Shown: positions 11,479-31,077, counted from the first letter of the stretch. The stretch is DNA of 64,000 nucleotides from Escherichia coli (GCF_003991155.1 NZ_CP031293.1); one strand, 5' to 3'. A program made the numbers and translations. Notes: generated by a model not told the origin, from the letters alone.

Positions 11479-11497
11479 AATGGTGCGATAATAGGAA
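11479..11497. repeat. attR: distal copy of the thrW 3' end
   Basis: AATGGTGCGATAATAGGA matches AATGGTGCCGATAATAGGA at 31059-31077, with one C missing. Confidence 0.75.
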
Positions 11498-11558
11498 CAA
11501 TACACATAGGCGATAAGCTTTGTTTTTGTTGCCTTTTTTATTGTTCATTTTTTATAGA

Positions 11559-11578
11559 TACCCCCAAAAGTACCCCCA
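11559..11578. repeat. tandem TACCCCCA arm-type repeats (attR arm)
   Basis: TACCCCCAaaagTACCCCCA sits about 60 bp inside attR. The same pair with the same 12-bp period occurs at 30928-30947 next to int. Confidence 0.6.
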
Positions 11579-11697
11579 TATCTTTTTCCGCCCCTGAAAT
11601 TTGGTTGTTATTCATACAGCATATCAGGCGGTAACGCTCTCCCTTTAACCCACTTATTGTATGATAGTGCTATCCCACAATAAGGAATCAGCCAGCC

Positions 11698-12057
11698 ATG
11701 AGAATGACCAGTCGCAAAAAAGAGATACTTAGCTACTTTGAACCGGATAACCTCGAATGGGTGACTGGTGAGATTGGTGCGCCGCCGTTCGATGTGTCGG
11801 GTGTGGCCTACCTGCTTCATGGCATGGTGTCGTTCGATAAGCGTCACCAGCTCGAATCAACCCGGCGAACACTGGAAAGCATGGTTGCTGGTGGACTGCT
11901 TGAGCGGGTGACAGTGTATGAATCGCGCCAGATACGGCGCGGCGGTGATACTAACGCAACGGTCGTGCGCTACGGTTTACCCGGTCAGTGCGCTGTTATG
12001 CGCGATACTGGCGGCGCTGACAACGCAATATCAGGTGAATACATGCGGGTCAGTTAA
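11698..12057 (+). CDS. hypothetical 119-aa protein (possible winged-helix)
   Basis: ORF preceded by an 8-bp inverted repeat, CTTATTGT-N16-ACAATAAG. Its 3' end overlaps the convergent pRiA4b-ORF3-like gene by 8 nt. No family recognised. Confidence 0.45.
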   Translation: MRMTSRKKEILSYFEPDNLEWVTGEIGAPPFDVSGVAYLLHGMVSFDKRHQLESTRRTLESMVAGGLLERVTVYESRQIRRGGDTNATVVRYGLPGQCAVMRDTGGADNAISGEYMRVS

Positions 12058-12592
12058 TAGCCTGCAATCTGTCGTTGATGCGGCTCAGGTCGTAAACCCG
12101 GCGTTCAATATCCAGCATCAGGAAATTGTGGATCTCGGCCTGCTCAGGATTATCAGACTCTCTGGCCTGTAATAGCAATTCATTGTAACCATGCAAGCCG
12201 CCTGAGTTTTCCGCCGGGGTGGTGCCTTTCCCACGCAGGCAGCTAATGGGCTGATTACTCGTATCGTGTGTTTGCTTCTCCAGCACAATGACGCAATCCC
12301 ACCAGTCGCCAAAGTCATACGTGTAAACCAGCTTGTCACCCTCATTCTGGAGCGCCGCCCATAGTGGCGTGATTGCCGCGTTACCCATGCTTTCATCCTC
12401 ACCCCATACGCGATACTCGCTACCTGGATCACCTTTACGCCCTTTCTCGAACATATACAGGTGTTCGTCATTCCAGCCAAAAGCTAACTGGATCACGGCA
12501 TGAAGTTTACTAAAGGGGATTTGCTCTGGAACCAGCACACGCCGCCATATAGGTGGTTTGCTGTCTCGGATGGTTATCTTTAGCTGGTACAT
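12050..12592 (-). CDS. plasmid pRiA4b ORF-3 family (MM3350-like) protein
   Basis: N-terminus MYQLKITIRDSKPPIWRRVLVPEQIPFSKLHAVIQLAFGWNDEHLYMF plus DFGDWW and GGLHGYNELL motifs, typical of this family as I remember it. Confidence 0.7.
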   Translation of the reverse strand: MYQLKITIRDSKPPIWRRVLVPEQIPFSKLHAVIQLAFGWNDEHLYMFEKGRKGDPGSEYRVWGEDESMGNAAITPLWAALQNEGDKLVYTYDFGDWWDCVIVLEKQTHDTSNQPISCLRGKGTTPAENSGGLHGYNELLLQARESDNPEQAEIHNFLMLDIERRVYDLSRINDRLQAIN

Positions 12593-12712
12593 GCAAATCC
12601 TGAATAAATGCGAATCGGAAGGATAACGATACTGACGTACTCACAATTCTGTAAAGGTGAATAAAGGAAATTTGCTTAATACGCATAAGTTACATGTGGA
12701 ATAATCCCATAT

Positions 12713-12898
12713 CTACCTGCGCGGCGCTGGCTTCTTCCACTGGTAGGCAGGTGCTCGCATCATTTCGCGGAACCTGTCGCGCCGGGCTATATCGGCATTA
12801 ACTGATCGTTCTATCTCCCGTTGATCTGCCTGTGTAAGCTGGTGGCCTCCGTGCTCAAGTTTGGCGATGGTCAATAAGGCTATTTCGCGTGGTGTCAT
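12713..12898 (-). CDS. hypothetical 61-aa basic protein
   Basis: ORF with GAGGG about 10 nt upstream of the ATG. No homology recognised. Confidence 0.4.
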   Translation of the reverse strand: MTPREIALLTIAKLEHGGHQLTQADQREIERSVNADIARRDRFREMMRAPAYQWKKPAPRR

Positions 12899-13127
12899 AC
12901 GTCATACCCTCTGGAAGGATGAAACACGCCCGGATTAAATTTCATTTTTCGCGGGTATAAAAAAACGATGGGGCGGGCAGTCCCGGATAGTCAGGGCTGT
13001 AGAGATTTGACTACCCCCTCCCCACTGGATTCAGGTTACTGCTATTCCGTTAAGCGCTGCTTACGGGGATAGCTGCGTTGTGATTTTGACCATTCAGGTC
13101 GCCGCTATTTCCTCACCGATTGGGTGC

Positions 13128-13147
13128 TACGCGCGCGCGTACTTGTC
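13128..13147. repeat. GC-palindrome repeat R1 (TACGCGCGCGCGTACTTGTC)
   Basis: First of four related copies (see 14520, 14754, 14807). R1 and R2 align over about 45 bp. Confidence 0.6.
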
Positions 13148-13195
13148 CCGAAATACCAGAAACCGCCAGCCAGAGGATGATTTCCCTCTGGTGGT

Positions 13196-13477
13196 CTACC
13201 TTTGCCTCTTGCCGCCATTTAACCGGAAGGCGTTACCGTTCGGTTGCGCTATCCCCATGCGGTGTTGCGTTTCGGTAACAGCTTTATGCAGGTCGCCAAA
13301 TTCCTCAACCTTCACGGGCGGGCGCTTCACGTTCTCCAGACACGTTTCACGGCGGCGCTTTATCCATTCCCGATCATCGTCCTCGGTGCATAACAGCATG
13401 ACTTCCATCCATCGTGCGGCAGCTCTCCGGTATAGCCCTTTTGACTCCAGCTCTTCAGCTTTCCTGTCCCTTATCAT
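13196..13477 (-). CDS. PerC/Pch-family transcriptional activator-like protein
   Basis: 93 aa. MIRDRKAEELESKGLYRRAAARWMEVML...RRRETCL matches the PerC-family signature (LE-KGL-RRAA-RW) as I recall it. Confidence 0.6.
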   Translation of the reverse strand: MIRDRKAEELESKGLYRRAAARWMEVMLLCTEDDDREWIKRRRETCLENVKRPPVKVEEFGDLHKAVTETQHRMGIAQPNGNAFRLNGGKRQR

Positions 13478-13506
13478 TTCTGCCTCTCAGATTATATAGA
13501 TAAGCA

Positions 13507-13634
13507 AAAAGGTGTTGGTTCAGTTGGTTCAGTTGGTTCAATTTGTAAAGATCGTTGTTTTTATTGTGTTTTTTCTGAAATGTTGAACCAACATCAACTC
13601 ATTTTGAACCAACACAGCCCAGCTCTGAACCAAC
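13507..13634. repeat. iteron-type origin-like element (ori-prime / crr-like)
   Basis: Three contiguous GTTGGTTCA (13514-13540), a 43-bp AT-rich spacer, then three inverted TGAACCAAC at 13584, 13605 and 13626 (21-bp phasing). Confidence 0.7.
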
Positions 13635-13686
13635 AACACAGCGATAGCTTTGTGATTGGTCCGTTATTTTCTGGCTGATATTTGAG

Positions 13687-13717
13687 CGTATAACAGTGTT
13701 ATACAGTGGTATACTGT
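13687..13717. promoter_or_regulatory. two adjacent palindromic operator-like sites upstream of the RHH gene
   Basis: TATAACAgTGTTATA (13687-13701) and ATACAGTggtatACTGTAT (13699-13717). They overlap a TATACT -10-like hexamer. Confidence 0.4.
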
Positions 13718-13736
13718 ATGGATATTACTCACTGAT

Positions 13737-14192
13737 ATGGTCTTTGCAATGAGCAAATCTAATCTGATCGCGTTCCGCATCCCATCTGAATTGCAGGATG
13801 AGTTTAATCGGTCTGTTCTCGCTTCTGGAGGGGATAAAACCTCCTGGCTTGTTGATGCGATTCGCATGAAGCTGGGACAGCCGGAAAAGTCTATTGATTC
13901 ACGAATGCTTGGGCTGGTGGAGCGCATGGAAAAAGCCGCTGCGTCGCTTATTGCCGGAAAGCCGAACATCCCACCAAAGCCATATAACGAAACGGCAGTT
14001 ATAAAGATCATTGCCGATACCATCCAACAGGGATTTGATAATGGGCGTGTGATAGCTGAACGGATCAATGAAGCAGGCTATCAAACAAAAGCTGGTAAAG
14101 CGTGGGATAAAGATATTTACAGCGCGTGGAAGCGTCAGGGAAGCAATGCTGAAAAGTTAAAAGCGGTGATTGATTGTAAGGTCAGCGTATAA
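13737..14192 (+). CDS. ribbon-helix-helix (Arc/Mnt/CopG-like) DNA-binding protein with an extra C-terminal domain
   Basis: N-terminus SNLIAFRIPSELQDEFNRSVLASGGDKTSWLVDAIRMKL fits the RHH strand-helix-helix pattern. The alternative start is 13749. The remaining ~100 aa are unassigned. Confidence 0.55.
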   Translation: MVFAMSKSNLIAFRIPSELQDEFNRSVLASGGDKTSWLVDAIRMKLGQPEKSIDSRMLGLVERMEKAAASLIAGKPNIPPKPYNETAVIKIIADTIQQGFDNGRVIAERINEAGYQTKAGKAWDKDIYSAWKRQGSNAEKLKAVIDCKVSV

Positions 14193-14271
14193 ACATGAGT
14201 GCCCATTGGAAAGCTGCTTGGGCCAATACCTTTATACACCAGCAGGTGGTGACGATAGGTGAGGATTAGGC

Positions 14272-14493
14272 ATGAAAGGCAGAACGCCACACATTGAACA
14301 TCAAGCCAACCACTTCTCGGATGTTCGCAATGAGATGATTGCCATTCGCGGTGATATGCACGGCTTGGAGCGTCGAATTATTGATAAGATTGATGAAAAT
14401 AGAGATAAGGCCAGTGAAAATCAAAAGTGGATCATCGGCCTGTTGATTTTATCAATTCTTATCCCGCTACTTATCGCATTGGTCACAAAATGA
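14272..14493 (+). CDS. 73-aa protein with coiled-coil N-terminus and a single C-terminal TM helix
   Basis: GAGG RBS 9 nt upstream. The C-terminus is WIIGLLILSILIPLLIALVTK. The architecture resembles XhlA/holin-like small membrane proteins (inference only). Confidence 0.5.
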   Translation: MKGRTPHIEHQANHFSDVRNEMIAIRGDMHGLERRIIDKIDENRDKASENQKWIIGLLILSILIPLLIALVTK

Positions 14494-14519
14494 ATATCCA
14501 ATGTGTATGCTGTCGATGC

Positions 14520-14537
14520 TACGCGCGCGTACTTGTC
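14520..14537. repeat. GC-palindrome repeat R2 (TACGCGCGCGTACTTGTC)
   Basis: See R1. Located 27 nt after the stop of the 73-aa gene. Confidence 0.6.
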
Positions 14538-14753
14538 GCAAAATATCAGGCAAAGGCCAGATTCAGAAATTCGTGATAACCACCAGCACAACATGAGAGG
14601 TCATGTAACGCGATTTATCACACCAGATACATGTGATTGGTGTACCCGCATAAAACATCGTCATAGCGCGTCCTGTGCGCATATACGCCGATAATCAACA
14701 CATCACCACCACTCTGTCTCATGTAGAGAACAGTTTTATGGTACTCCCCTCCA

Positions 14754-14770
14754 TCGTGCGCGTACTGGTC
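14754..14770. repeat. GC-palindrome repeat R3 (TCGTGCGCGTACTGGTC)
   Basis: Degenerate copy, same orientation as R1, R2 and R4. Confidence 0.5.
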
Positions 14771-14776
14771 GGACGT

Positions 14777-14798
14777 AGTTGCAAAATTTTTTGCAACT
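14777..14798. repeat. inverted repeat AGTTGCAA-N6-TTGCAACT between R3 and R4
   Basis: 8-bp perfect arms read directly from the sequence. Confidence 0.5.
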
Positions 14799-14806
14799 GA
14801 TACCCC

Positions 14807-14823
14807 TCGCGCGCGTACTGGTC
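14807..14823. repeat. GC-palindrome repeat R4 (TCGCGCGCGTACTGGTC)
   Basis: See R1. Confidence 0.55.
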
Positions 14824-15885: not shown

Positions 15886-18612
15886 CTATTCCCATTCGCT
15901 AACATCTTTCATGCCACTGAGGGTAGCTACAATCCCGGCCCTTGTCAGTTTCACGAATTCTTCAGCCCCAACGGCATCACGAATTGCTTTCATGGCAATT
16001 TTATTGGCCGAAAATCGTTTCTCTGCTGCGGCGATCGCTGCTGGTGATGCCCCTGCGCGCACTGCTTTTGTAGCTTCCTGAACGGCTTTCTCTATCGCAT
16101 ATCGACCACTTCTTGTCGCCCCAATCTTAGCCACAGCATTTCTTAGCGCGCCACCAGCAACCAAACCACTAATCGAACCAATTACACCACCGCCAAAGCC
16201 TCCAGCGATCGCACCTGACTGTTGAACTCCGTTCATAATCACGCCGACGATCTTTGGAAGGCCTGAATCGAGCGTTTTGAGAGCCTCAGTTGTTCTTCCC
16301 GTGCGCTCTACGTATCGCTGCGGTCTGGTACTGGCTTTAGCGAGTACACCGAACTCTTTCATCATTCTACCGAGATCTGGCGCATGACGACTGATGGCGT
16401 TTACATTCTGCTGGGTCATGAGCTTGGCAAAATACTGGATACCTGACTCTTCACCGATTCCTCCCTTCTCTCCCTGCGCCACAGCATGCTGAAGAATAGA
16501 TGCTATTGCAGGTTGGCGTTCTGCTTCCGGCAGCGCGGAGATAAGACGGTGAAAAGCTCCCGTTCCAGTGTTTGCGGATGCCTTAAGCGTATCGGCACCT
16601 TTTCTTACCATAGCGTCTGATGCGAGATCTCGACCAAAAACAGATTCGGCATTTTGTTTGGCGATAATGTAACTTTTAGAGAGATCGTTAGCTTTCTGCC
16701 ATTCTGTGAGGAAGTTTCCTTTTTCAGCCATGATGCGCATGTCATCAGTGATAGCTCTGCGCATTTCTCCGGCAATCCGGGCGGCATTGGCCTTACCTGC
16801 CCGGGTGTTTGCTTGTTCAGCATCAGCAAACTTAGCACGCCATGCCTTCATCCCGTCGAAGGTTATGCCGCCACCTTGGTTGTTGGCAGCCTGAAACTGT
16901 TTCATCTCCGGGCTGAGTGGAACATTGGCTGCTTTTTCTGCTTGGACGACAGCCATCCCATTACTCATTTTCATCCTTTCGCGTGGCATCGTGCTTCGCA
17001 GTTCTGCCCATGCCATATTCTCTGCTGTTTTCATATCACTGAGGCTCGCGATGATGCGCTCTTTAATTGCTGCGCTTTTTTCTGATGCGCTTCCAGACTC
17101 AGCACCGAAATCAGACAACTGCTTATTCAACTTTGAGGATATTTCATTGAAGGCCGTAAGGTGAGCATCCTGAACATTCCCAGGAGTTGATGCCAGAACA
17201 CCTTCTGCTTGGGCAATTCCACGACTACCTGAGCGCATTCCAGGCGTCAGGGTGTTGATATTAATACCAGTGATTTTCGCCGCCTTAGCGACATCATCTC
17301 TGACGTTTGATGCCTGCGATGCGATATGCTCTCGGCCTACGGCAGAACGCGCTGCTTTCGATACATCATTGGCGGTTTCCAGAGTATTTGCTGCCCCTAA
17401 CACATGGCCTGATTGATTTGTATTACTCCGCAATACATCTCGCATTACGTCACTGGCTGTCTGTCCGCTCTTTATTAAAGCGCGTGCTCCTAGCGATCCT
17501 GCTAGGCCAATACCTGTCTCTTTTGCTAGGTCTTCTGGGCTGATCTGCCCGTTCTTTTGGGCGTTCACCAATGTACCTGGCAGGTTTTCTGCCAACATAC
17601 TAGCCACCTTTGTGGCCGCACGTTCAGCACGTGGAGCGTTGGCAACTGAAGAAGCTGCGGTAGCTGCCTTTCCTGCACCTAATCCTGTAATAAGGTAAGG
17701 TGCTAGCTGCTCACCAGCCTGCGCGTATGGATCTGTAGGTTGGTCTACTGGGCGAAAGACAGGTGATATGGGCGTGTATGTGCCATCACCCACACCAAGC
17801 TTCTGAGCTGCCCATGCTCCGGCTGATTGCGCCGCATTGACTACCCCCACGCCTGCGTCCATTACATCAAACGGTATATTAGCAATCCCTCTGGCCATCT
17901 GCTCTGGCGCAGCTTTCAGTCCTGGCGAAAGATATTCCATCTCAGGATTAAGGTTAGACTTGGCTACTTGCTGCTGCGGTTCCCCGGCATTTTCATCGGC
18001 GAGAAACTGAGCTCTTTTCTGCTCCCATGAACTGGCTGTTGGTAGTCCTGCTTCTATGTTCTTAAATTGCTGACGTTTTGCTTCCCATGCAGAAATATCT
18101 CCCACCTGAGAGATTTCTTTATCAAGCTCTGAGTAGTCAGGCTGCTGAAGATTGCGATGTTGACTGGTTTGTGCAAACTGCAAGATTTCACTGTCATCAG
18201 GGATTATTCCGGCATCTGCAAATTTACTTACGTAATTAGCCGTTTCATCTGGCAGTGTAGATTTACCGTTTCTGACGGCATTAATACGAGCATAGCCAGA
18301 ATTATACCCAGCCAATGCCATACCTATATCACCAAATCGCTTCATTCCTTTATTGAGATGGTTTGCTGCGATATCCATTTGCTTTTCAAATGGCAGTGAG
18401 CGCGGATCTGTTCCACGATAACCAGCATCACTCATTACTGAGGGCATCAGTTGAGCAAATCCTCTAGCTCCTTTCGGTGACTCGGCACTTCCGTTACCAC
18501 TAGATTCATTGCCAACTAATGTTTCCATCGTCCCTGATGGGAAACCATATTTTTCATCGAGATGACGGGAATAGGCTTTCTGTTTTTCTGTCAGTTGTGC
18601 CATCATTGCCAT
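15886..18612 (-). CDS. 908-aa protein with N-terminal soluble lytic transglycosylase domain (ejection / internal virion protein-like)
   Basis: SLT motifs near the N-terminus: NESSGN...GARGFAQLMPSV...ALAGYNSGYARI. The remainder is Ala-rich and helical with a Gly-rich hydrophobic segment near the C-terminus. The start overlaps the upstream ORF by 10 nt. Confidence 0.75.
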   Translation of the reverse strand: MAMMAQLTEKQKAYSRHLDEKYGFPSGTMETLVGNESSGNGSAESPKGARGFAQLMPSVMSDAGYRGTDPRSLPFEKQMDIAANHLNKGMKRFGDIGMALAGYNSGYARINAVRNGKSTLPDETANYVSKFADAGIIPDDSEILQFAQTSQHRNLQQPDYSELDKEISQVGDISAWEAKRQQFKNIEAGLPTASSWEQKRAQFLADENAGEPQQQVAKSNLNPEMEYLSPGLKAAPEQMARGIANIPFDVMDAGVGVVNAAQSAGAWAAQKLGVGDGTYTPISPVFRPVDQPTDPYAQAGEQLAPYLITGLGAGKAATAASSVANAPRAERAATKVASMLAENLPGTLVNAQKNGQISPEDLAKETGIGLAGSLGARALIKSGQTASDVMRDVLRSNTNQSGHVLGAANTLETANDVSKAARSAVGREHIASQASNVRDDVAKAAKITGININTLTPGMRSGSRGIAQAEGVLASTPGNVQDAHLTAFNEISSKLNKQLSDFGAESGSASEKSAAIKERIIASLSDMKTAENMAWAELRSTMPRERMKMSNGMAVVQAEKAANVPLSPEMKQFQAANNQGGGITFDGMKAWRAKFADAEQANTRAGKANAARIAGEMRRAITDDMRIMAEKGNFLTEWQKANDLSKSYIIAKQNAESVFGRDLASDAMVRKGADTLKASANTGTGAFHRLISALPEAERQPAIASILQHAVAQGEKGGIGEESGIQYFAKLMTQQNVNAISRHAPDLGRMMKEFGVLAKASTRPQRYVERTGRTTEALKTLDSGLPKIVGVIMNGVQQSGAIAGGFGGGVIGSISGLVAGGALRNAVAKIGATRSGRYAIEKAVQEATKAVRAGASPAAIAAAEKRFSANKIAMKAIRDAVGAEEFVKLTRAGIVATLSGMKDVSEWE

Positions 18613-19922
18613 CCCTTAAGTTTTGCCTGATAGTAACTTTCCGGCAGATAGCCATGTGCGGTCACATAATCCTTAACCAGTGAAGGATCCTGCAACAGCA
18701 TTTTGGTATCAGTTTCTTCGTCCTTAGATTTGGTTACAGGAATACCGAGCCCGGCAATCTGTCGTTTCTGCATTCGAATAATTACGTCCTGCGCTTTATT
18801 CAACTCTCGCAAAAATGCCTCATTGCTGGTTGCTGACTTAATGCCATTTTGAGATTGCATAAGGGCAGCCCTTTCCCCTTCGGTTGGGTTAGAGCCAAAA
18901 GTCCCTTTGAGGCTAGGCAGAATAACCTTTAGGTTGTATTCATCAGCTTTGGCGCGTAGGCTTCGTGTGTCTTCTGCTACATCAGGAAGGAATCCAAACC
19001 CCAGCGTCAGGGGGTTATAGTTCTGCGAGCGGGTAACGGCCGAAGGATGTTTCCCTACAATTCCCGCCAGTTCATGACCCACTTCAAGCGCAGAGTTCAA
19101 GGAGTCGATGTTACCTACAACAGTATTAATTTTATCGTTCATCTTCTCCACTTTCGCCTGCTGTACCTTGCTCAGTTCAGCATTGAGCTTGTCTCTCTCG
19201 ATGTCATTTTGAGCACGTCCAAGTCGTGCTTTCAGAACCATTTCTCTCGTGCGTAGTTGGTTATCGGATAGGACTTTGAACTGCTCCATATCGAGACGTC
19301 GATTACCCTGTTCCGCATTAACCTGAGCATTATATGCGGATGTATCTGCGTTCTGCTGTGCAATGCTCTGCCCTTGCTGCTTCTCTTGAACACTAAAGTA
19401 ACTATTTGGATCAGCATGGAGGTGGATGAGGTCAGTGATTCTGTTGAATTCCTGTGGGTCATTCTGCCAAGACTGATAAACCTCTTCAGCAGGAAGACCA
19501 AATCGCTGTAATACTGGATTTGCCTGCTGAATGGCCTTCTGCATGGTCAGTGGATCTCCAGTTTGTGACGCAAGACGCAGATTCATGGCAGCGTCAGCGG
19601 TCTGTCGATTTTGCTCAGCATCAATGAATCCCATCTGTTTTTGAGAATCAGCCATAAACTGGGGATACTGGGCCATTAACTTCTGCACGCCAACACGATC
19701 ATTATTAGCTACCGCACTACCCAACCGTGCCTGATATTCTTTTAACTGCTGGGAAATTTGCGCCTGCTGATTAATCTCAGCAACGCCTCTTAGCCCCTGT
19801 AGCGCCATTAAACCTACGTTTGGCTGCTGCTGATACTGCACAGGCTGAGGAACGGAAGAACGAGGAGCATTATCATTTTGCGGTGCCATGCTAGGCAGCC
19901 CGCCAAGTTGCCATGTCGCCAT
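18603..19922 (-). CDS. 439-aa Gln-rich coiled-coil protein (ejection protein-like, P22 gp20-sized)
   Basis: Long uninterrupted ORF. Its start overlaps the upstream stop by 1 nt. Composition and position inside the cassette are the only evidence. Confidence 0.6.
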   Translation of the reverse strand: MATWQLGGLPSMAPQNDNAPRSSVPQPVQYQQQPNVGLMALQGLRGVAEINQQAQISQQLKEYQARLGSAVANNDRVGVQKLMAQYPQFMADSQKQMGFIDAEQNRQTADAAMNLRLASQTGDPLTMQKAIQQANPVLQRFGLPAEEVYQSWQNDPQEFNRITDLIHLHADPNSYFSVQEKQQGQSIAQQNADTSAYNAQVNAEQGNRRLDMEQFKVLSDNQLRTREMVLKARLGRAQNDIERDKLNAELSKVQQAKVEKMNDKINTVVGNIDSLNSALEVGHELAGIVGKHPSAVTRSQNYNPLTLGFGFLPDVAEDTRSLRAKADEYNLKVILPSLKGTFGSNPTEGERAALMQSQNGIKSATSNEAFLRELNKAQDVIIRMQKRQIAGLGIPVTKSKDEETDTKMLLQDPSLVKDYVTAHGYLPESYYQAKLKGWQ

Positions 19923-20599
19923 TAGAATCCAAGCCCCCCAACAAGACCAATAAGCCCACCACCAATAGCGCCGGCCGCAGTTCCTATTCCAGGAACAACG
20001 GAACCAAGTTGCGCACCCGCTAAAGCGCCTGATGCTGCCCCACCAATACCACGCGCAAGACTGGATGGCTGCTGCGCCTGACCTGCACGAATAGCGCCAA
20101 GCCCCTGCAAGAGTTGTCCGGTATTATTGGCGTAGTTTTGCCCTGCCGTTGCCTGCCCTGATGCCGCATTCATCCCGACATTTAGCAGGTTTCCATAATT
20201 TTGCATTTGCCCACTAAGCCAATTGTTATAAAGCATGGGCGCAATGGAAGATAACTGGTTACTGGTAGCTGTTGAGCCAAGCCCCCCGGTAGCTTCTGCT
20301 GAGACAAGGTTCTGATAACGGGCCTGATCTGCCTGTGTTTTATATAAACCAGAACCAAAGAAATCATTCGCGGCTTTATTCTGCCCTTCCAGAGTCATCA
20401 GTCCTTGCAGTTGTTGTAAAGCAGGCAATCCGACTTCTGCATACGGCTTGAGATTATTCATCACCGTATTCCACTGCTCGCGCTGCAAATCAATTGCCTG
20501 CTGCTGGGCCTTCGCCTGAGCTTTAGAGGCACCACCATCACCGCCTTTTTCGTATACGGCACGATTGAGATGTTTATGAGCTATATGGGTAATTAACAT
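19922..20599 (-). CDS. 225-aa Gly/Ala/Gln-rich protein with hydrophobic Gly-zipper C-terminus (ejection protein-like, P22 gp7-sized)
   Basis: ATGTTAA start/stop overlap with the upstream ORF. C-terminus is GSVVPGIGTAAGAIGGGLIGLVGGLGF. Confidence 0.55.
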   Translation of the reverse strand: MLITHIAHKHLNRAVYEKGGDGGASKAQAKAQQQAIDLQREQWNTVMNNLKPYAEVGLPALQQLQGLMTLEGQNKAANDFFGSGLYKTQADQARYQNLVSAEATGGLGSTATSNQLSSIAPMLYNNWLSGQMQNYGNLLNVGMNAASGQATAGQNYANNTGQLLQGLGAIRAGQAQQPSSLARGIGGAASGALAGAQLGSVVPGIGTAAGAIGGGLIGLVGGLGF

Positions 20600-21054
20600 T
20601 CGCTGAATTCCTTATATTGTTGCCGAGTTAACTGATAAAGCGTTACGCCGACGGGTTTACCACATCTGATATAAGCATCATCAAGGTGACCAACACGGGT
20701 AGCGCCAAGCAAACGGATAATTGCCCGTCCATATTTTGTGGTGTCAGGAACCATAGTGATGCTGTTAAGGAATGGTGAGTTTTCGAGAAGCCATTTGCAG
20801 AATAATCGATGCCCTTGCAGTGCATATTCACCACGGAATCCGGGGTCGTACACCGCATGGCATTCAACAACGCTATGCCAGAAGTTACGCACTTCATGAA
20901 CGCCAGCCAGCACTAATCCTTCGTAGATGCCGAGATATACCGCATCAGGCTTGATGTAGTACGTGTGCCCCGGCTCAACAATATTTTCGGTATTGCCTGG
21001 CTCGTTAAGAAAGGCCTGTAATCGCACAGGGTTATCAATAAATTTTAGTTCCAT
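20593..21054 (-). CDS. 153-aa protein, possible acetyltransferase-like fold (P22 gp14-sized)
   Basis: ORF contains DPGFRGEYALQGHRLFCKWLL, which resembles GNAT motif A. First large gene of the cassette. Assignment is tentative. Confidence 0.5.
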   Translation of the reverse strand: MELKFIDNPVRLQAFLNEPGNTENIVEPGHTYYIKPDAVYLGIYEGLVLAGVHEVRNFWHSVVECHAVYDPGFRGEYALQGHRLFCKWLLENSPFLNSITMVPDTTKYGRAIIRLLGATRVGHLDDAYIRCGKPVGVTLYQLTRQQYKEFSEC

Positions 21055-21070
21055 GCGATGCCATCCATTT

Positions 21071-21681: not shown

Positions 21682-21799
21682 GTCGGTTCAAAATACCGTG
21701 TTGTTGGTTCAGTGTTGGTTCAATAAAAAGAATAAAATCCTTATAAAACAATACACTTTACAAATTGAACCAACTGAACCAACTGAACCAACACCTTTT
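21682..21799. repeat. iteron-type replication origin adjacent to the primase gene
   Basis: GTCGGTTCA and two GTTGGTTCA (21682, 21703, 21714), a 43-bp AT-rich spacer, then three contiguous TGAACCAAC (21766-21792). 21756-21799 is the exact reverse complement of 13507-13550. Confidence 0.75.
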
Positions 21800-21817
21800 C
21801 TACGCACATGAAGAAGC

Positions 21818-24577
21818 TCATTCTTCAGATGAGTTATAATCTCCTGGCTGGTAATTGAGTACATAAACGTTTATTTGTCGTCCCTGAATACGTGGTGATT
21901 TTCTTTGGTATCCACGACCGCTGTTTGGTGGGGTTAGCATCCCGGCTTTTTTCAACACTTCAGCAAACTGTTTTGCGTTGAAACCACATGCGATCTCCTT
22001 TTCAAATGTGGCCGGGAATGTGTAGAAAATCATTGGGCTTTCGTCATGTTCTCCACGCTGACGGTATCCGGCTAAATCTTTGATGGGCAAATCTGCCGGG
22101 CTGTATGGAAATGGTGCAAAACGGCTAAGCCCATAGGCATTAAGAAATGCCTCCGTTTGTTCAATAATCTGCTGATGCTCTTTGTTACCTGTGCCGAACT
22201 CGCGCAACCATGCGTTATAGCTGTGCTGTATCGCATCACGGCATGTCTGAGCATCCCAGCCTGTTACAACCTCGCCTAACAACAATGCGGCCTCCAGAAT
22301 GGCAAATCGCGCGGCTACACGGTGAACCTGCTCACCATAATCGGATGGGATCAGGCTTCTCCATCTGCTTTCGCAATCACGAACGGTTTTAATAGCCTGT
22401 TGCTGGTGGTGTGCCAGCCATTTAATCCACTCACGCCCGGACGCGCCGTGGTGATGCTGGTAAGCGTCTTTCAGTGCGTCTGCGTGCTGTTTTCCGTTCT
22501 GGTAATCGTGAAAGCGTACTGCTTTACTCAACGGAATATTCAGCAGTCGCACCAGTTGCCCGGCTTTGGTTTTTCGCCCGGAAGTAGCGATAAATGTTTC
22601 TAAATCCATTTCTCCGGTGCTGATTGCCACTGTACGCCAGCGTTTTAGATCCCGGTTTCCACCATCTTTAGCGCCTTGCAGTTTCCCTACACCGTTAAAT
22701 AACGCATAGGCAGACTGTGAAACGCTGACAGGATCAGCGCCCTGACCAACTTCATCAAGCGGCATTAGTCCGTCATTGTGGGCGGCGGCCTCATTTGCCA
22801 GCCCCAGCGCGGTTCCGTACCACGTCAGCCGCAGTAAATCAGGGTTGCCGTATAAGCTGCTCGCCACGTTTGCCGTGGTGGTCTTACCTGCGCTCGACTG
22901 CTCATAGAAATGAATGCCGAACCCGTCAGCGCCCACCAGCCCAATCAATGGCGCTGCCAGTGCTGCGCCGATCCCGGTCATCATTGAATAGTTACCAAAG
23001 GCCAGACGCGCCACGTTATCACGCCAGCTTTTCGCGCTCCCTGAGACGGTATATCCGGCTGCGGCTGAGCTTCTCCCGCTGAACAGCACAGGATTTTCAG
23101 GTGTTCCGATGATTTCCCCATCAGGCATGATGTACGCTCCGCATTGCCAGCCAGTGGCATGAGCAACACGCCACAATTCACGAGAGCCACTGCGTTGTAG
23201 CCAGTCTGCCAGTATTGCTCTGAGGCTGCTTTTGGTCGTGACATTTACCCCACCAGCTTTAAGTGTGCGCCATCCTTCACGTTCACCAATATCAGCCAGT
23301 GGAATGGCAGCGGTTGTCGGCGTTTCAGAACCAAACGACAGCCAGCGAAGAATGAGATACTGGTCTTTATCGTCTCTGCCAGTACCGATAACGCTTAACG
23401 GAGAACATAACCAGCTTTCGTTATTGATGATTTCTCCACTCTGGCTGTCAGCTCTCGGAGATACCCAATAAATACCATCCTCGCGGCTTTCTATTCTTGG
23501 TTTCAGTGGGTCGGTATCCATAACCTTAAAATCGCTTCCCTCAATGGTCTGTGGCTCCTGTTTCACGCCATTACCCTGTGGTTGGTACATTGACTTATTG
23601 AACGCTTCTGTGGCGCATTTAATGCCGTGTTTTTGGTGGTAATCATTCCAGTCTGCTTTGTGATCTGTCGGGGGTAATGCCACCCATCCAGAAACAGATA
23701 AAGCTGCTTTTTCTGCTGCTATTCTCCCCGTGTTTTGTCTTCCTTCGCTGTGGTCGTTATCCGCAGCAATGATGATTTGTGCTGAAGGAAATTTATCCCG
23801 CAGTACCTGGGCGACATATAACAGGTTCCCGGCATCAATCGCCGCCACTGTCAGCGCCTCTGGACGAATTAAATGGGCAGATAATGCCGTTGCCAGACCT
23901 TCTGCGATTAAGATGCTCTGTGTTGTTTCTGGTGCGTTTATGGCGTGATATGCCCCCCGCTTTGCTGAACCTGTCAGGAGTCTTTTTTCACCATGTGAGG
24001 TAATAGTCTGTGCTGCTGTGACTGCGCCGGATTTATCCACCAGCGCCAGCAACAGAGATCCATCGGGCAACACGGGGAATGTAAAATCACCTACCCCTTT
24101 CGCAACCAGATAATCAGATTTGCCGTTTACAGCCTTTCTGCGCATGTCATCAAACTGACGGGAAAACGTATCCCGTCTTTGTTGTTCGTCCTTCTCTGCC
24201 CTTTTCAGGCGCTCCTGTTCGCGTCGCTGGCGCTCGGTTTCCAGTTGTTCCCGTTTCTGGCTGGTGGCTTCTGGTGTTTCCGTTGTCCGGTAATCAATAC
24301 CCAGAACATCAGCGGCAAGAAGCGCCGCCTCTGTTGTGTCGCAGTTATTTACGCGTTTAATTAAATCCAGCCCATCACCAGCGCCGCACTGATTACAGAT
24401 GAAGCTACCGCGCCCGTTGTCATCGAACCGGAATCGATCTTTGCCCCCACATGCAGGGCAGGGAGCATGACGGCGCGGAGAGTCAGGGACATTTATGTTC
24501 AGGCAGCCCAGCACATGAGGCCAGTTGTTTTCAGACGCACTGATAACCTGACGGATAAGATCAATGTTTCGCATCAC
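21818..24577 (-). CDS. primase-helicase (Zn-ribbon + TOPRIM + DUF927/P-loop), functional analogue of P4 alpha
   Basis: Zn ribbon CPACGGKDRFRFDD...FICNQCG; TOPRIM-like ILIAEGLATALS...IIIAADND; Walker A YEQSSAGKTT. GTG 24577 or ATG 24574 start overlapping the upstream stop. Confidence 0.85.
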   Translation of the reverse strand: MMRNIDLIRQVISASENNWPHVLGCLNINVPDSPRRHAPCPACGGKDRFRFDDNGRGSFICNQCGAGDGLDLIKRVNNCDTTEAALLAADVLGIDYRTTETPEATSQKREQLETERQRREQERLKRAEKDEQQRRDTFSRQFDDMRRKAVNGKSDYLVAKGVGDFTFPVLPDGSLLLALVDKSGAVTAAQTITSHGEKRLLTGSAKRGAYHAINAPETTQSILIAEGLATALSAHLIRPEALTVAAIDAGNLLYVAQVLRDKFPSAQIIIAADNDHSEGRQNTGRIAAEKAALSVSGWVALPPTDHKADWNDYHQKHGIKCATEAFNKSMYQPQGNGVKQEPQTIEGSDFKVMDTDPLKPRIESREDGIYWVSPRADSQSGEIINNESWLCSPLSVIGTGRDDKDQYLILRWLSFGSETPTTAAIPLADIGEREGWRTLKAGGVNVTTKSSLRAILADWLQRSGSRELWRVAHATGWQCGAYIMPDGEIIGTPENPVLFSGRSSAAAGYTVSGSAKSWRDNVARLAFGNYSMMTGIGAALAAPLIGLVGADGFGIHFYEQSSAGKTTTANVASSLYGNPDLLRLTWYGTALGLANEAAAHNDGLMPLDEVGQGADPVSVSQSAYALFNGVGKLQGAKDGGNRDLKRWRTVAISTGEMDLETFIATSGRKTKAGQLVRLLNIPLSKAVRFHDYQNGKQHADALKDAYQHHHGASGREWIKWLAHHQQQAIKTVRDCESRWRSLIPSDYGEQVHRVAARFAILEAALLLGEVVTGWDAQTCRDAIQHSYNAWLREFGTGNKEHQQIIEQTEAFLNAYGLSRFAPFPYSPADLPIKDLAGYRQRGEHDESPMIFYTFPATFEKEIACGFNAKQFAEVLKKAGMLTPPNSGRGYQRKSPRIQGRQINVYVLNYQPGDYNSSEE

Positions 24578-25266: not shown

Positions 25267-25276
25267 GGCTCCATCC

Positions 25277-26942: not shown

Positions 26943-26951
26943 GTGGCAGCC

Positions 26952-26991: not shown

Positions 26992-26997
26992 TTTCGC

Positions 26998-27077
26998 TGG
27001 TGGTAGCCCAGACAGGGTTGGCGTAACCGGCTCGAATGGATACCGGCGCTTCCGAAGAAGCCCCTGCCTGAGCCACC
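26998..27077 (-). ncRNA. P4 CI / P1 C4-like antisense immunity RNA (tRNA-like acceptor stem + ACCA 3' end)
   Basis: 80 nt. GGUGGCUCAG pairs with CUGGGCUACC (10 bp, 2 G-U), followed by ACCA. Internal UUCG-capped hairpin GCUUC-UUCG-GAAGC. Exposed UCCAUUCGA and ACGCCAA have complements both upstream and downstream on the same strand. Confidence 0.6.
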
Positions 27078-27144
27078 ATTGATTGACAAAGGCGCTGGAT
27101 TATACACCAACGCCCAAAAAATGGGTGAGTCAGACCTACGACAT

Positions 27145-27166
27145 AAAAAAAGACGCTCGGCGCGTC
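27145..27166 (-). terminator. intrinsic terminator just after the upstream RNA target pair (immunity terminator-like)
   Basis: Minus strand: GACGC-gccga-GCGTC followed by TTTTTTT. It lies inside the 355-aa ORF-track frame. Confidence 0.55.
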
Positions 27167-27174
27167 ATATGTCG

Positions 27175-27198
27175 CCATTCGATTTACTAGGACGCCAA
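27175..27198 (-). promoter_or_regulatory. upstream target pair of the CI/C4-like RNA (seqA-like)
   Basis: Minus strand: TTGGCGT-N9-TCGAATGG. Same two boxes in the same order as the downstream pair. Confidence 0.5.
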
Positions 27199-27597
27199 TC
27201 CCGGCACCCGTTTTATGAGGTGCCTTATAACCATAAACCGTGTTGCCGCATAACGGCAAGCTCTTTTTTATGGACTCCGAAAACTCGCTATTGGAAGCAC
27301 CAGATGCACAGTACATCGCGCTCATTTCGTTAACGTCACGCGCGTGGACGAATGTTTTTGTGGAGTCACTACACGAGCGGAAGACATCATCTACGACCAG
27401 AAATTTTCTGGCGCAGCCGCTGACCTTCTCAATGCTAATATCATCGCCCGAGATTTCTGATATGGTTAAGGCATCCGTTCCGACCACCAGCAAATGATAA
27501 ACTTTGCTTGTATCTGCTGTATTAATGCCTGACTTTGCCGTCATATTGCTGGATTTTGGCGACATACCAGCCAGTGAAAATGTCTTCTTCTGGACGG

Positions 27598-27780
27598 TTA
27601 GCATTTGTTAACCTCCGCGAACTCCTTCATGAAACGCGCCAGCGGTTGTACGCATGGCGATTGATACCCGTCGCGATAAAACGTCACTCGGTTGTGAGAC
27701 ACGCTTTCGACAGTAACGAGTGCTCCGTGGGCATCTTTGTAGCGTTTTTGTGGTTGTGGTGTTCCTGTTGGCTTAGACAT
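27598..27780 (-). CDS. hypothetical 60-aa protein
   Basis: ATG 27780 with a GGAGG RBS, overlapping the antirepressor stop by 8 nt (MSKPTGTPQPQKRYKDAHGALVTVESV...). Confidence 0.5.
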   Translation of the reverse strand: MSKPTGTPQPQKRYKDAHGALVTVESVSHNRVTFYRDGYQSPCVQPLARFMKEFAEVNKC

Positions 27781-28606
27781 TGACCACCTCCAGACGCTTG
27801 GCGAGCCAGCGTTGCGACAGGCGGGTGAGTTCTCCTTTGCGCTGCTCATATTCCATGCCCATATCAATTAACGTGATATTGGTGCTTTCGAGATATGAGA
27901 GGTGCTCAAGCTGTTCTGCGTTCATATGGTCGCGAGGTTCGCCAGAATAGCCATTTATCCGCGCCCACTGCTTAGCAGTTAGCCCACCAAGAACGATACG
28001 AGAAATCATATTGCTCTCGTTTGTGTAGTGGTGTTGCTGCGTCGTTTTACCCATCTCGGCACGGGCCATATTCAGCGCATCGCACATTGGCTTAAAGTTG
28101 TTTGCGGCACTGAGACGGGCTTTTAGCTGGCGACGATAGCGGGCGGCGATTTCAGGCACGCTACGCTGTAATTCTTCCTCGCACTGGATGAAATAACGGC
28201 GGATAGCGCGACCCTGATCATTGCGTTCGATCATTGCCAGTTCTTTCGCCATTCCGACACTTAACAGATAGTCTTTGCCGGGTCTGCCAGAGTGCTTTAT
28301 CTTGCTGTAAGCCGCGCCATTCGGGCTTTTCCCCAAATTTGGGGAAATTGTTTTATGGACTGAGTAATCGTGCCCAATGGTGAAGTCATATTCAGAGATG
28401 CGATCAGTGATCCATGTAGAGAAGTCTTTTCCCACGCCCAACGCTTTGTGTAACGCTTTTGCGCTAACAATATTGGTTTCACGCCCACCGATATGACCAG
28501 GAATAACCGGGACAATTGCGGCAAATTCATTACCGTTAATTGTGCTCAGAGAGGCGTTCAGATGAGGGGCGGCCTCAGAAATTAATCTGCTTTTTTCGAT
28601 GTTCAT
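27773..28606 (-). CDS. phage antirepressor (AntA/Rha-type N-terminal domain)
   Basis: 277 aa. NIVSAKALHKALGVGKDFSTWITDRISEYDFTIGHDY is the AntA/AntB-type DNA-binding region as I recall it. Confidence 0.7.
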   Translation of the reverse strand: MNIEKSRLISEAAPHLNASLSTINGNEFAAIVPVIPGHIGGRETNIVSAKALHKALGVGKDFSTWITDRISEYDFTIGHDYSVHKTISPNLGKSPNGAAYSKIKHSGRPGKDYLLSVGMAKELAMIERNDQGRAIRRYFIQCEEELQRSVPEIAARYRRQLKARLSAANNFKPMCDALNMARAEMGKTTQQHHYTNESNMISRIVLGGLTAKQWARINGYSGEPRDHMNAEQLEHLSYLESTNITLIDMGMEYEQRKGELTRLSQRWLAKRLEVVNV

Positions 28607-28618
28607 TTTCAGTCTCCG

Positions 28619-29050
28619 TTAGGCGGCGTTAAACGCGTCCGGGTAGAGTTTCAGAATGTCGGCAATTTCCTGCTGAGAAAGTCCGTTGTGATCATTTATG
28701 TTCGCAAGATGGTTAATATGAGTGATCACTTTCAGAACATCACCACGGCAGGAGAAACGGTAGCGAAGGTGTGTTCCGATACCATCAGGATTCTTTTCGT
28801 CGATACGCTCCAGAGTGATTCCAAGCTGGCGTTCTAACTCTGTTGCATAGTTACGACCAGAAGACAGACGGCAGTAGCGAAGAATGTCATTTTCTGTCCA
28901 TCCCTCTATACCAGTACGCAGCATATAGACTCTGGCACGATGCTTTTTCGGTGTGCGCTTTGGTGCTTGAAGGGATTTTGTAAGGGGCGTAACATCAGAT
29001 ACACGAATATCTGAATTAGCCGCCTGTAATGGGCGGTTTTTCTTTTCCAT
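28619..29050 (-). CDS. hypothetical 143-aa protein of the island early region
   Basis: ORF whose start overlaps the alpA stop by 1 nt. The N-terminus is basic. No family recognised. Confidence 0.5.
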   Translation of the reverse strand: MEKKNRPLQAANSDIRVSDVTPLTKSLQAPKRTPKKHRARVYMLRTGIEGWTENDILRYCRLSSGRNYATELERQLGITLERIDEKNPDGIGTHLRYRFSCRGDVLKVITHINHLANINDHNGLSQQEIADILKLYPDAFNAA

Positions 29051-29253
29051 CAGGCCACCTCGTCTCTAGATTCTAATATACACTTCTCAATCCATTCATC
29101 TATTTCAGACTCAACAAAAGCAATTGCCCGACTTCCAATTTTTACCTGTTTAGGGAACCTCCCCTGACTAATAAGACGATAAATCCATGCTTTGCTATAA
29201 CCAGTTCGCCTTTGAACTTCAGAGAGACGAATTAATGAATTGTAATTAGCCAT
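29050..29253 (-). CDS. alpA: AlpA-family transcriptional regulator / excisionase
   Basis: 67 aa. LIRLSEVQRRTGYSKAWIYRLISQGRFPKQVKIGSRAIAFVESEIDEWI is the AlpA/MerR-type HTH signature. Located next to a P4-type int. Confidence 0.8.
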   Translation of the reverse strand: MANYNSLIRLSEVQRRTGYSKAWIYRLISQGRFPKQVKIGSRAIAFVESEIDEWIEKCILESRDEVA

Positions 29254-29342
29254 TTATTAATATCCTGTACTAATGACGCAATAACCCCCTCCTGCAACGA
29301 ATGGCGAGAGTTTTATTTGCGTCAAATGTCGAATACGCCAAA

Positions 29343-29375
29343 GACCACAATATGAAAAACATATTGCGGTCTTTT
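29343..29375. terminator. hairpin terminator between int and alpA
   Basis: 12-bp stem GACCACAATATG/CATATTGCGGTC (1 mismatch) with T runs on both sides. Confidence 0.45.
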
Positions 29376-29680
29376 ATAAAAGATAGTCAGATTGTTTTGG
29401 TTTGTTTGCTCCACAAGGGTAGAGCTACCCTGCATTTCGGCAGGATCACGCTATTAGGCGTGACATCCAGTAGTTTTAAAGAACAATTGCGCTTTGTCAG
29501 CGCCAAAGCCTGTTAAAGAACATTCCGCTTTTCAGCAGCGTAGAAGGCTCAATACACCTTCGTTTATAAAAGAGCGATTGCCCTTCTCCAGGGCTAACTG
29601 TTAAATAGCAATCCTCTGTGAGTTTTTATCAATCTACTCCCCTATACTTTAGTAAACCTCTGTATACTTGTCCAGTTGTT

Positions 29681-30895
29681 TCATGCGTGTTTTTCAAACA
29701 CCATATGCACCACATTTCCGCCATGCTCGAGAGAATCCATATAGTCGGCATACCATTGAAGCATCTCCCGCCGTCCATCCAGATATTGCGCATGGTTGTA
29801 TGTGCCACGAATTGAGTTCTTATCAACGTGAGCGAGCTGCGTTTCTATCCACGCGGTGTTATAGCCCTGCTCATGCAAAATCGTGCTCATAGTGTGTCGG
29901 AACCCATGACCAGTTACACGTCCAGCGTAGCCAATGCGCTTAAACACTTGGTTTATGCTGGCCTCACTCATTGTTTTCCTTGGATCATTGCGCCCGGGAA
30001 ACATAAGAGGGTAATTGCCTGTTATTTCTCTAATCTTCCCAATAAGCGAAAGAGCCTGCTCAGACAATGGCACAATATGAGGCCGCCGCATTTTCATACG
30101 TGAAGCGGGTATCTCCCATATAGCCTTGTTGAAATCAATTTCATCCCATAATGCGCCACGTAGTTCGCCAGTTCGCAAGCCGGTGATAATCAGTAGACGA
30201 GCCGCCATAACAACCAATGCGCTTCCTGAGTAACTGGACAATGCCTTGAAAAAATCAGGTAATTCTTTGGTCGTAAGGAAAGGGTAATGATTAGATTCAT
30301 GGCCTTGCATCGCGCTAGTAAGGTCTGGTGCAGGGTTATACTCTGCGCGACCAGTGACTATTGCATAGCGGAAAACTTCCCCGCACCGCTGCCTCACTTT
30401 TTTGGCTTTTTCTGTCGCACCGCGCCCCTCGATGCGCCGCAGCACATTCAGAAGTTCAAGTGGTTTGATTTCGGCGATTGGTTTTTTGCCAATGTAAGGG
30501 AACACATCTTTGTTGAAGGCTTCGAGGATGTCTGAAGCATAACCAGCAGACCATTTTTTTAATTTGCTGCTGTGCCACTCAAGGGCAATATCTTTGAAGG
30601 TGTTGTTTAACTGCGTTTCCCGGGCAATCTTTTCCTCTCGTTTCGCTTCCATCGGATCGATACCACCAGCGATACCTCTTTTCGCATCTTCACGTTTTGC
30701 CCGAGCATCGGCTAGAGTAACCTCAGGATACACACCTAGTGCCAATAGCTTCTCTTTACCAGCTACACGATATTTAAGTCGCCAGTATTTACCTCCATTA
30801 GGTTTTACCAAGAGATACAAACCGCCACCATCGGCCAGCTTGTAAGCCTTCTCTTTTGGCTTGGCTGTGTCTATTTGACGGGCATTGAGTTTCAC
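29681..30895 (-). CDS. int: P4-type tyrosine integrase
   Basis: 404 aa, GTG start. N-terminal MKLNARQIDTAKPKEKAYKLADGGGLYLLVKPNGGKYWRLKYR (DUF4102-type arm-binding domain). C-terminal HGFRHT...AHV...YNHAQY catalytic boxes. Adjacent to the tRNA. Confidence 0.9.
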   Translation of the reverse strand: MKLNARQIDTAKPKEKAYKLADGGGLYLLVKPNGGKYWRLKYRVAGKEKLLALGVYPEVTLADARAKREDAKRGIAGGIDPMEAKREEKIARETQLNNTFKDIALEWHSSKLKKWSAGYASDILEAFNKDVFPYIGKKPIAEIKPLELLNVLRRIEGRGATEKAKKVRQRCGEVFRYAIVTGRAEYNPAPDLTSAMQGHESNHYPFLTTKELPDFFKALSSYSGSALVVMAARLLIITGLRTGELRGALWDEIDFNKAIWEIPASRMKMRRPHIVPLSEQALSLIGKIREITGNYPLMFPGRNDPRKTMSEASINQVFKRIGYAGRVTGHGFRHTMSTILHEQGYNTAWIETQLAHVDKNSIRGTYNHAQYLDGRREMLQWYADYMDSLEHGGNVVHMVFEKHA

Positions 30896-30927
30896 TTGGG
30901 GGTACCTCCACTAAACCGAACAGCAAA

Positions 30928-30947
30928 TACCCCCATAAGTACCCCCA
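30928..30947. repeat. tandem TACCCCCA arm-type repeats (attL arm)
   Basis: TACCCCCAtaagTACCCCCA. A third, inverted copy lies at 30897-30904 over the int RBS. Confidence 0.6.
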
Positions 30948-31058
30948 TCTGACCGTAGATTTTGAGGGACTTTAGTAGACGTCAAAAGACGAACGGGGCT
31001 TTAATACGCGGATTATAAGGGGTTTTGAAAGACTTTAGTAGACTTGGGGAGATGTTTG

Positions 31059-31077
31059 AATGGTGCCGATAATAGGA
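31059..31077. repeat. attL core within the thrW 3' end
   Basis: AATGGTGCCGATAATAGGA is repeated at 11479-11497. Confidence 0.75.

Follow-up and report, generated by a model that had tools for sequence, protein, structure and literature searches.

Known relatives of the island

The closest described relative of the island analyzed here is EcCIMP1 of Escherichia coli MP1, a phage-inducible chromosomal island (PICI) of 19,963 bp. It is integrated at the transfer RNA (tRNA)-Thr gene between proA and yagU and is flanked by TCCTATTATC (PMC11773190; Pick, Stadel & Raivio, ISME J 2025; GenBank OR778291). The subject of this study is an island at thrW in a 64,000-nt stretch of E. coli DNA (NZ_CP031293.1), which is called the window throughout. 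By the published EcCIMP1 convention, the island spans positions 11487-31067, i.e., 19,581 bp.

The biology of EcCIMP1 has been studied experimentally (PMC11773190). Circles were detected by polymerase chain reaction (PCR) only in lysogens of the P22-like phage Kapi1, and mitomycin C raised their amount. The PCR product of the circular junction was Sanger-sequenced, and the boundaries were confirmed. Excision required intS_1 and alpA, and a second gene, alpA_1, was dispensable. AlpA autoregulates, and an alpA reporter was unresponsive to mitomycin C in a non-lysogen. Kapi1 transduced EcCIMP1 at a low rate. In addition, the PerC homologue repressed LEE1, and EcCIMP1 contributed to superinfection immunity, a phenotype left unexplained. 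The authors placed the element phylogenetically far from the Gram-negative PICIs EcCICFT073 and EcCIEDL933, recognized no capsid-redirection or terminase genes, flagged the "DNA transfer/DUF2824" genes merely as candidates for packaging, and class variants without alpA_1 as EcCIMP1-like (PMC11773190).

Comparison of the thrW island with EcCIMP1

The nucleotide sequences of the island and EcCIMP1 were about 98% identical over about 95% of the queried interval. Both elements occupy the same proA/yagU site at thrW, have the same gene order, and share their end sequences, including one missing C in the distal repeat. Int turned out to be identical to IntS_1 of MP1 at 403 of 404 positions and AlpA at 67 of 67. 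All 13 proteins that were compared with MP1 were 97–100% identical, none of them contained an internal stop, and both att arms were essentially identical to those of MP1. With high confidence, the interval can be regarded as one discrete mobile element, i.e., a phage satellite of the EcCIMP1 type at the 3′-end of thrW. An earlier note on this DNA, made from the sequence alone, had favored a satellite over a prophage, and the experiments with EcCIMP1, a PICI mobilized by Kapi1, bear this out. One observation weighs against this assignment: the annotated flanks around the island contain no helper phage.

Boundaries, satellite nature, and helper dependence have already been published for this 98% identical element, and the island is another copy and not a new kind. 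The present analysis goes beyond the 2025 paper in four respects, which are the arm-site architecture with a candidate recognition code, a proposed relocation of the crossover, the P4-type RNA immunity together with the iterons, and the recognition of the "DNA transfer" genes as a complete P22-type ejection set. These additions are incremental and address specialists in site-specific recombination and phage satellites.

The two copies differ in an accessory segment at 13614-14513, seen as a gap in the BLAST alignment. MP1 carries the xis-like alpA_1 there, whereas the window has unrelated small open reading frames (ORFs). Pfam recognized an AlpA domain only in the MP1 ORF and no AlpA-family ORF in the window between 13614 and 14513, and thus, the second alpA gene of EcCIMP1 is unmatched. 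In EcCIMP1, alpA_1 helps Kapi1 to excise. The surroundings differ as well: in MP1 a 7-kb Vat/MarR island separates EcCIMP1 from the yagU-side flank, whereas the island in the window adjoins this flank directly.

The target, thrW, encodes tRNA-Thr(CGT) and is located at 31061-31136 on the minus strand (ARAGORN; Rfam tRNA match). The 19 nt at its 3′-end, AATGGTGCCGATAATAGGA, form the tRNA-proximal att core at 31059-31077. The distal att repeat, AATGGTGCGATAATAGGA at 11479-11496, comprises 18 nt and equals AATGGTGCCGATAATAGGA minus one C of the CC. Direct reading thus agreed with the earlier note as to the repeat and its missing C, but the left repeat ends at 11496, one base before the end given there (11497). 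A search for repeats that tolerated mismatches missed the left copy; the difference is an indel. The sequence GATAATAGGA is present at both ends (11487-11496 and 31068-31077), and the chance expectation for an adjacent 8-mer and 10-mer match in 64 kb was calculated to be about 2e-6.

Comparative genomics located the boundaries at the same positions. Homology of island-free genomes begins at 31051-31060, and the homology breakpoints coincide with the repeat. The left and right ends match the Sanger-confirmed ends of EcCIMP1. An empty site was found in E. coli 201609, in which an identical left flank, including a pseudogenised integrase fragment, is fused to an intact thrW. Other genomes have the identical left island end next to at least four unrelated flanks; the flanks at this end include the Vat/MarR island in MP1, an HNH/methyltransferase island in O111 11128, and a yagP remnant in STEC383. 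The earlier note had considered that the left boundary might lie elsewhere, e.g., if its repeat belonged to an older element; the empty site, the several unrelated flanks, and the comparison of thrW occupancy do not agree with that view. In the RefSeq annotation of near-identical genomes, the island lies between yagU and thrW-proA, and the window is E. coli DNA. In BLAST, 48 complete E. coli genomes covered the queried interval (11000-31500) to at least 80%. In K-12, thrW is occupied by the unrelated 34-kb element CP4-6, in agreement with the earlier note.

Just outside the left end, at 11312-11466, lies the C-terminus of a pseudogenised integrase, oriented toward the att repeat; the empty site of 201609 has it too. 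This fragment is about 75% identical to integrases of the thrW-integrating lambdoid phages HK75, mEpX2, and SfX, and it is therefore debris of an earlier occupant of thrW.

Position of the crossover

The EcCIMP1 paper hypothesized that TCCTATTATC is the core (PMC11773190). The missing C allowed us to reconsider this proposal. In the following, the P arm denotes the distal and the P′ arm the int-proximal side. The P-arm junction is held by 267 E. coli genomes; among the 40 listed, 38 had a junction of 65 nt, with the C missing, and two (CP53 and Z1323CEC0013) had 66 nt, with CC. The single-C repeat occurs beside at least four unrelated flanks, one of which is the P′ arm of the Vat island, which has CC when it stands alone beside thrW. 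Furthermore, CC and single-C elements were found on identical flanks (CP53 and Z1323 versus STEC383, and the elements L095 versus L094). The state of the C run varies with the element on the same flanks, and thus, the run would belong to the element, which would place strand exchange to the left of the C run, within AATGGTG (CACCA of the tRNA plus TT). We consider it fairly probable that this 7-bp segment, and not the published TCCTATTATC, is the site of crossover. The missing C would then be carried by the attP of the element, with CGATAATAGGA in the distal repeat being element-borne. Excision would restore an intact thrW with CC, and attP would read ...GTTTGAATGGTGCGATAATAGGAACAA... with a single C.

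It is also possible, though doubtful, that strands are exchanged within TCCTATTATC and that the C was lost by mutation at the chromosomal left junction, in which case its absence would not characterize attP. Several points speak for this possibility and, at the same time, against AATGGTG, which was chosen by parsimony. No perfect match between the two ends is longer than the 10-bp block. A deletion of 1 nt directly beside the overlap region would displace the core site by 1 bp, which is awkward for core-site positioning. Lastly, the sole P′-core-P junction in public contigs has CC. However, a mutated left junction would require many independent origins of the same deletion, as single-C repeats adjoin four or more unrelated flanks, among them the P′ arm of a neighboring island that has CC when alone at thrW, and it does not explain why the C run differs between element lineages on identical flanks.

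The CC junction itself is compatible with both models. Exact-pattern scans detected it on a single IMG/VR contig (L088, IMGVR_UViG_2617270975_000009), and the cargo beyond int on this contig is a different island (DUF6387, as in O111 strains). The junction thus stems from a tandem array and is undecisive and no proof of a circle. At 9554-11084 of L088, an EcCIMP1-like element is followed by the DUF6387 island, and the two have almost identical integrases and P′ arms. This shows that one integration module serves several unrelated cargos. In the metagenome contigs, the strict P′-core-P pattern had no match, and a relaxed pattern retrieved only ordinary left junctions. Public assemblies neither strengthen nor weaken the published PCR evidence for the circle.

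Candidate arm-type sites of the integrase

The integrase gene (29681-30895, minus strand) encodes a tyrosine integrase of 404 aa with Arm, central, and catalytic domains; the Arm domain (PF13356, E = 1.4e-28) comprises residues 3-88. The motif TACCCCCA was found six times in the window, compared to an expectation of 1.10, and none of 100 shuffles reached six. Five of the matches lie at the island ends. The candidate P-arm pair, TACCCCCA-N4-TACCCCCA, is located at 11559-11566 and 11571-11578 (plus strand), and the candidate P′-arm pair, with the same 12-bp period, is located at 30928-30935 and 30940-30947 (plus strand). The distal pair is 62 bp and the int-proximal pair 111 bp away from the core, in good agreement with the roughly 60 and 110 bp of the earlier note, which had placed all five sites exactly. 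The fifth site is a single inverted copy at 30897-30904 (minus strand), between a GGAGG Shine-Dalgarno motif (30905-30909) and the GTG start codon of int (30895), and is a candidate int operator. The sixth match, at 17842 within the gp16-like gene, was treated as a chance occurrence.

The conservation of this arrangement was surveyed in 79 loci from contigs with one genome per species. Their integrases are 61–98% identical, and the loci stem from many genera, among them Escherichia, Yersinia, Photorhabdus, Xenorhabdus, Serratia, Morganella, and Pantoea. The exact 7-mer triple was present in 52 of the 79 loci, versus none of 1580 shuffled controls, and in these 52 loci the single copy ended 0–3 nt before the int start codon. 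The layout was defined as a pair with exact 12-bp spacing that is followed, 20–25 bp downstream (53–56 bp in a few loci), by one inverted copy. When at most one mismatch per site was allowed, it was found in 67 loci, which fell into four motif classes: TACCCCC (40), TGCCCCC (20), CTATACA (6), and GGCCCCC (1). On a neighbor-joining tree of the integrases, the motif class changed at least eight times, and all copies within an element changed together.

The sites were also found on islands with other cargos. The 49-kb thrW island of E. coli 2020N08-094 is unrelated, yet its att-int junction region is about 78% identical at the DNA level, and it has TGCCCCC at all five equivalent positions; its distal pair is located about 62 bp inward of the distal repeat. 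Ten more elements (L006, L026, L028, L036, L041, and L091-L095) have distal pairs 56–62 bp inside the distal repeat. In each case the distal motif equals the element's own int-proximal motif; one belongs to the CTATACA class, and some of the elements target another tRNA. In the decayed Vat island, which contains an int pseudogene, one unit of the pair is lost and the other is mutated.

Three Int residues separated the TA class (40 loci) and the TG class (20 loci) perfectly, namely residues 29 (L versus E/Q), 50 (L versus R), and 53 (L/I/V versus F). Ten of the 12 best class-discriminating alignment columns lie inside the Arm domain. An arginine at the change from A to G in the motif would be chemically plausible. 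The five sites together with residues 29, 50, and 53 (L29, L50, and L53 versus E/Q, R, and F) represent a candidate recognition code for a widespread clade of tRNA-targeting island integrases. Judging from the Yersinia pestis locus, this clade presumably includes relatives of the integrase of the Yersinia high-pathogenicity island.

The features expected of a heterobivalent integrase were found: an N-terminal Arm domain and sites on both arms that differ from the core and whose positions are maintained among relatives. Such an integrase would bind T(A/G)CCCCC with its Arm domain at the P-arm pair, the P′-arm pair, and the inverted copy at the int start. The island shares with the systems of lambda Int and KplE1 IntS the Arm domain, sites repeated on the two arms (about 60 and 110 bp away from the core), and sites over the int start, the latter of which predicts negative autoregulation. 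It differs in the motif and in the strict layout (12-bp pair, inverted copy at the start codon), which are particular to this integrase clade and for which binding is predicted here. With the inverted copy and the pair about 23 bp upstream of it occupied, int would be repressed, as for other tRNA-adjacent integrases. Negative autoregulation of int genes that are adjacent to tRNA genes and have a regulatory region overlapping attL is known for IntS, IntF of CP4-6 at thrW, P4 Int, and the PAI I536 integrase (PMC2951348, which cites the P4 report; PMC7286903). Conserved geometry, concerted motif switching, and covariation with the Arm domain strongly support the arm sites, and the proposal of arm-type sites and int autoregulation, first made in the earlier note, is very likely correct, although it is an instance of a known principle.

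Some points weigh against it. The evidence comes from sequence comparison, and the covariation of the Arm residues is confounded by shared ancestry and possible exchange of whole modules. A scan of 30800-31200 with the sigma-70 consensus retrieved no sigma-70-like promoter upstream of int, and the EcCIMP1 paper does not mention arm sites (PMC11773190). A literature search for TACCCCCA or TGGGGGTA in combination with integrase retrieved no relevant prior description; most subscription journals lay outside this search, including those with the P4 Int/Vis papers.

The repeats might instead be promoter elements or binding sites for AlpA or for a different accessory or regulatory factor. AlpA of MP1 is required for excision and autoregulates, and a position upstream of int is where regulators would act. 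However, the motif travels with the integrase across islands of unrelated cargo, it is present on both arms at lambda-like distances, and the motif class segregates perfectly with three Arm residues, with most of the best discriminating columns inside the Arm domain. Moreover, a separate conserved motif is available for an accessory factor. We therefore regard sites for a factor other than Int as unlikely. The separate motif, GTAGAC/GTAGAT, occurs in three copies at 30955-31043 (plus strand): GACTTTAGTAGAC is present at 30968-30980 and 31031-31043, 63 bp apart on the int-proximal arm, and GTAGAT at 30955-30960. Their conservation extends across genera and includes loci with a different target tRNA, and the blocks are candidate sites for AlpA or a recombination directionality factor, or for a core-proximal protein.

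Probable excision competence

The island in this strain is likely to be excision-competent, because Int and AlpA are identical, at 403 of 404 and 67 of 67 positions, to their MP1 counterparts, without which EcCIMP1 does not excise. An immobile relic, prevented from excising here by the imperfect left repeat or by the lack of some function, appears very unlikely. The left repeat is indeed imperfect, the copy in the window is devoid of alpA_1, and the transduction rate of EcCIMP1 was low. However, MP1 has the same missing C and still excises, which shows that the imperfect repeat is not disabling, and alpA_1 is dispensable in MP1. Both arms are also essentially identical to those of MP1, and the 13 compared proteins have no internal stops. 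The earlier note had proposed to look for excision after induction by the SOS response or a helper phage. The part concerning the helper held: in MP1, circles appeared only in the Kapi1 lysogen. The SOS part did not hold in this form, since mitomycin C had no effect on the alpA reporter in the non-lysogen.

P22-type ejection proteins

The earlier note had listed int, AlpA, RNA immunity, a primase-helicase, and iterons, and these were all found, but its statement that morphogenesis genes are absent did not survive the domain searches. Pfam and PHROGs identified a module of P22-type virion internal proteins at 15886-21054 on the minus strand. It consists of four genes, which encode a gp14-like DUF2824 protein (20593-21054), gp7 (19922-20599), gp20 (18603-19922), and an SLT-gp16 fusion protein of 908 aa (15886-18612). 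The gp14 gene and the 5′ part of the gp7 gene are 81% identical at the DNA level to the helper phage Kapi1, and no phage protein is more than 52% identical to the gp16-like protein. Neither Pfam nor PHROGs yielded a match to capsid, terminase, tail, or holin proteins, and no redirection gene was recognized.

Compared with a defective P22 prophage, the gp14-gp16 module is the sole phage-like part of the island, and the repeat has 18–19 nt and is not the 46-nt thrW att. A composite of a P4-like island and the remaining distal part of a P22-like prophage (gp14-gp16), which would not be one mobile unit, is hardly credible and was rejected. In its favor, P22-like and lambdoid phages do integrate at thrW, part of a lambdoid int gene is found immediately beyond the left end, and the orientation of the ejection genes fits the late operon of a P22-type prophage. 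However, the circular junction of MP1 joins exactly these two ends, so that the whole 20 kb moves together. Furthermore, 80% or more of the queried interval is present in 48 genomes, iteron clusters flank the ejection module on both sides, no P22-type 46-nt thrW fragment is present inside, and comparison with the empty site reveals one clean insertion.

As part of one mobile satellite, the module would mean that the element supplies its own P22-type ejection proteins. We tentatively suggest that EcCIMP1-type elements might represent a distinct satellite design, in which a P4-like core for immunity and replication is combined with an own P22-type ejection set (gp7, gp20, and SLT-gp16) and a gp14 homologue. 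Instead of remodeling capsids, such a satellite might load its own DNA-delivery proteins into helper capsids or hinder those of the helper. The role of the satellite's own ejection proteins is the most interesting question raised by this island.

Immunity, replication, and relation to other satellites

The gene order away from thrW is int, AlpA, AntA/B antirepressor, DUF4222, Ash ORF with C4/isrK, Icd-like ORF, primase-helicase, the P22-type module, PerC, and a pRiA4b-ORF3 protein (Pfam, Rfam, PHROGs). The following genes are all encoded on the minus strand unless stated otherwise. AlpA (29050-29253) was identified by Pfam (Phage_AlpA, E = 7e-20), as was an antirepressor of the AntA/AntB family (27773-28606). 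A region at 26996-27223 (minus strand) contains two small RNAs, the C4 antisense RNA at 26996-27083 (Rfam, 79.5 bits versus a gathering threshold of 45) and isrK at 27146-27223 (60.5 versus 50 bits). Both lie inside an ORF of 355 aa that matches the Ash family and has the RefSeq annotation "Ash family protein"; this long ORF is probably an over-call. Silence of the element in the lysogenic state would probably be mediated by the P4-type C4 RNA.

The primase-helicase gene lies at 21818-24577, and its product contains a Zn ribbon, Toprim, and DUF927 (Pfam). Residues 8-362 are 33% identical to P4 alpha, and beyond residue 362 none of the matches listed was to P4. Iteron cluster 1 (21705-21790), a candidate ori just 3′ of the primase gene, contains TGGTTCA in two direct and three inverted copies. 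Cluster 2 (13516-13632) has three direct and three inverted copies, cross-matches cluster 1 in BLAST, and is a possible counterpart of P4 crr. The ejection module lies between the clusters, which are separated by 8 kb. Such a pair of iteron clusters is reminiscent of ori and crr of P4. Replication would probably rely on the primase-helicase at the two clusters. Neither the C4 and isrK RNAs nor the TGGTTCA iterons are mentioned in the EcCIMP1 paper (PMC11773190).

The island has much in common with P4, i.e., a tRNA-targeting integrase with an Arm domain, a helix-turn-helix protein of the AlpA/Vis type, a C4-type RNA, Ash and Icd-like ORFs, and the N-terminal primase domain. It differs from P4 in having no Pfam match to psu, sid, delta, or epsilon and in the DUF927 helicase part, and its relative EcCIMP1 uses a P22-like podovirus as a helper, whereas P4 uses P2. 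P4 is not known to have genes for P22-type ejection proteins. SatelliteFinder defines the P4-like core as int, alpA, alpha, epsilon, delta, psu, and sid; the island contains only int, alpA, and an alpha-like N-terminal primase domain of this set, together with C4-type RNA immunity. The PICI backbone is present, with int, alpA, and primase in order, att repeats, and a size in the class of about 10–20 kb. The Gram-negative PICIs EcCICFT073 and EcCIEDL933 share this int-alpA-primase backbone, a length of 10–20 kb, and induction that depends on AlpA and the helper. In contrast to them, the island carries the ejection-protein module and P4-type RNA immunity.

Further features of the island and the window

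A regulator of the PerC family is encoded at 13196-13477 (minus strand; Pfam) and is identical to the MP1 protein at 93 of 93 positions; its orthologue represses LEE1. PADLOC retrieved no defence match for eight cargo ORFs, and many small ORFs of the island had no match in Pfam or PHROGs. Outside the island, between ykgJ and yagU, an Rfam IS009 family match (191.7 bits) was found at 10067-10268. Further downstream, the window contains two tRNA-Asp(GTC) genes on the minus strand, at 54670-54746 and 62893-62969, which are 8.2 kb apart and, by comparison with the K-12 map, are likely aspV and aspU; aspV is another hotspot for the integration of islands.

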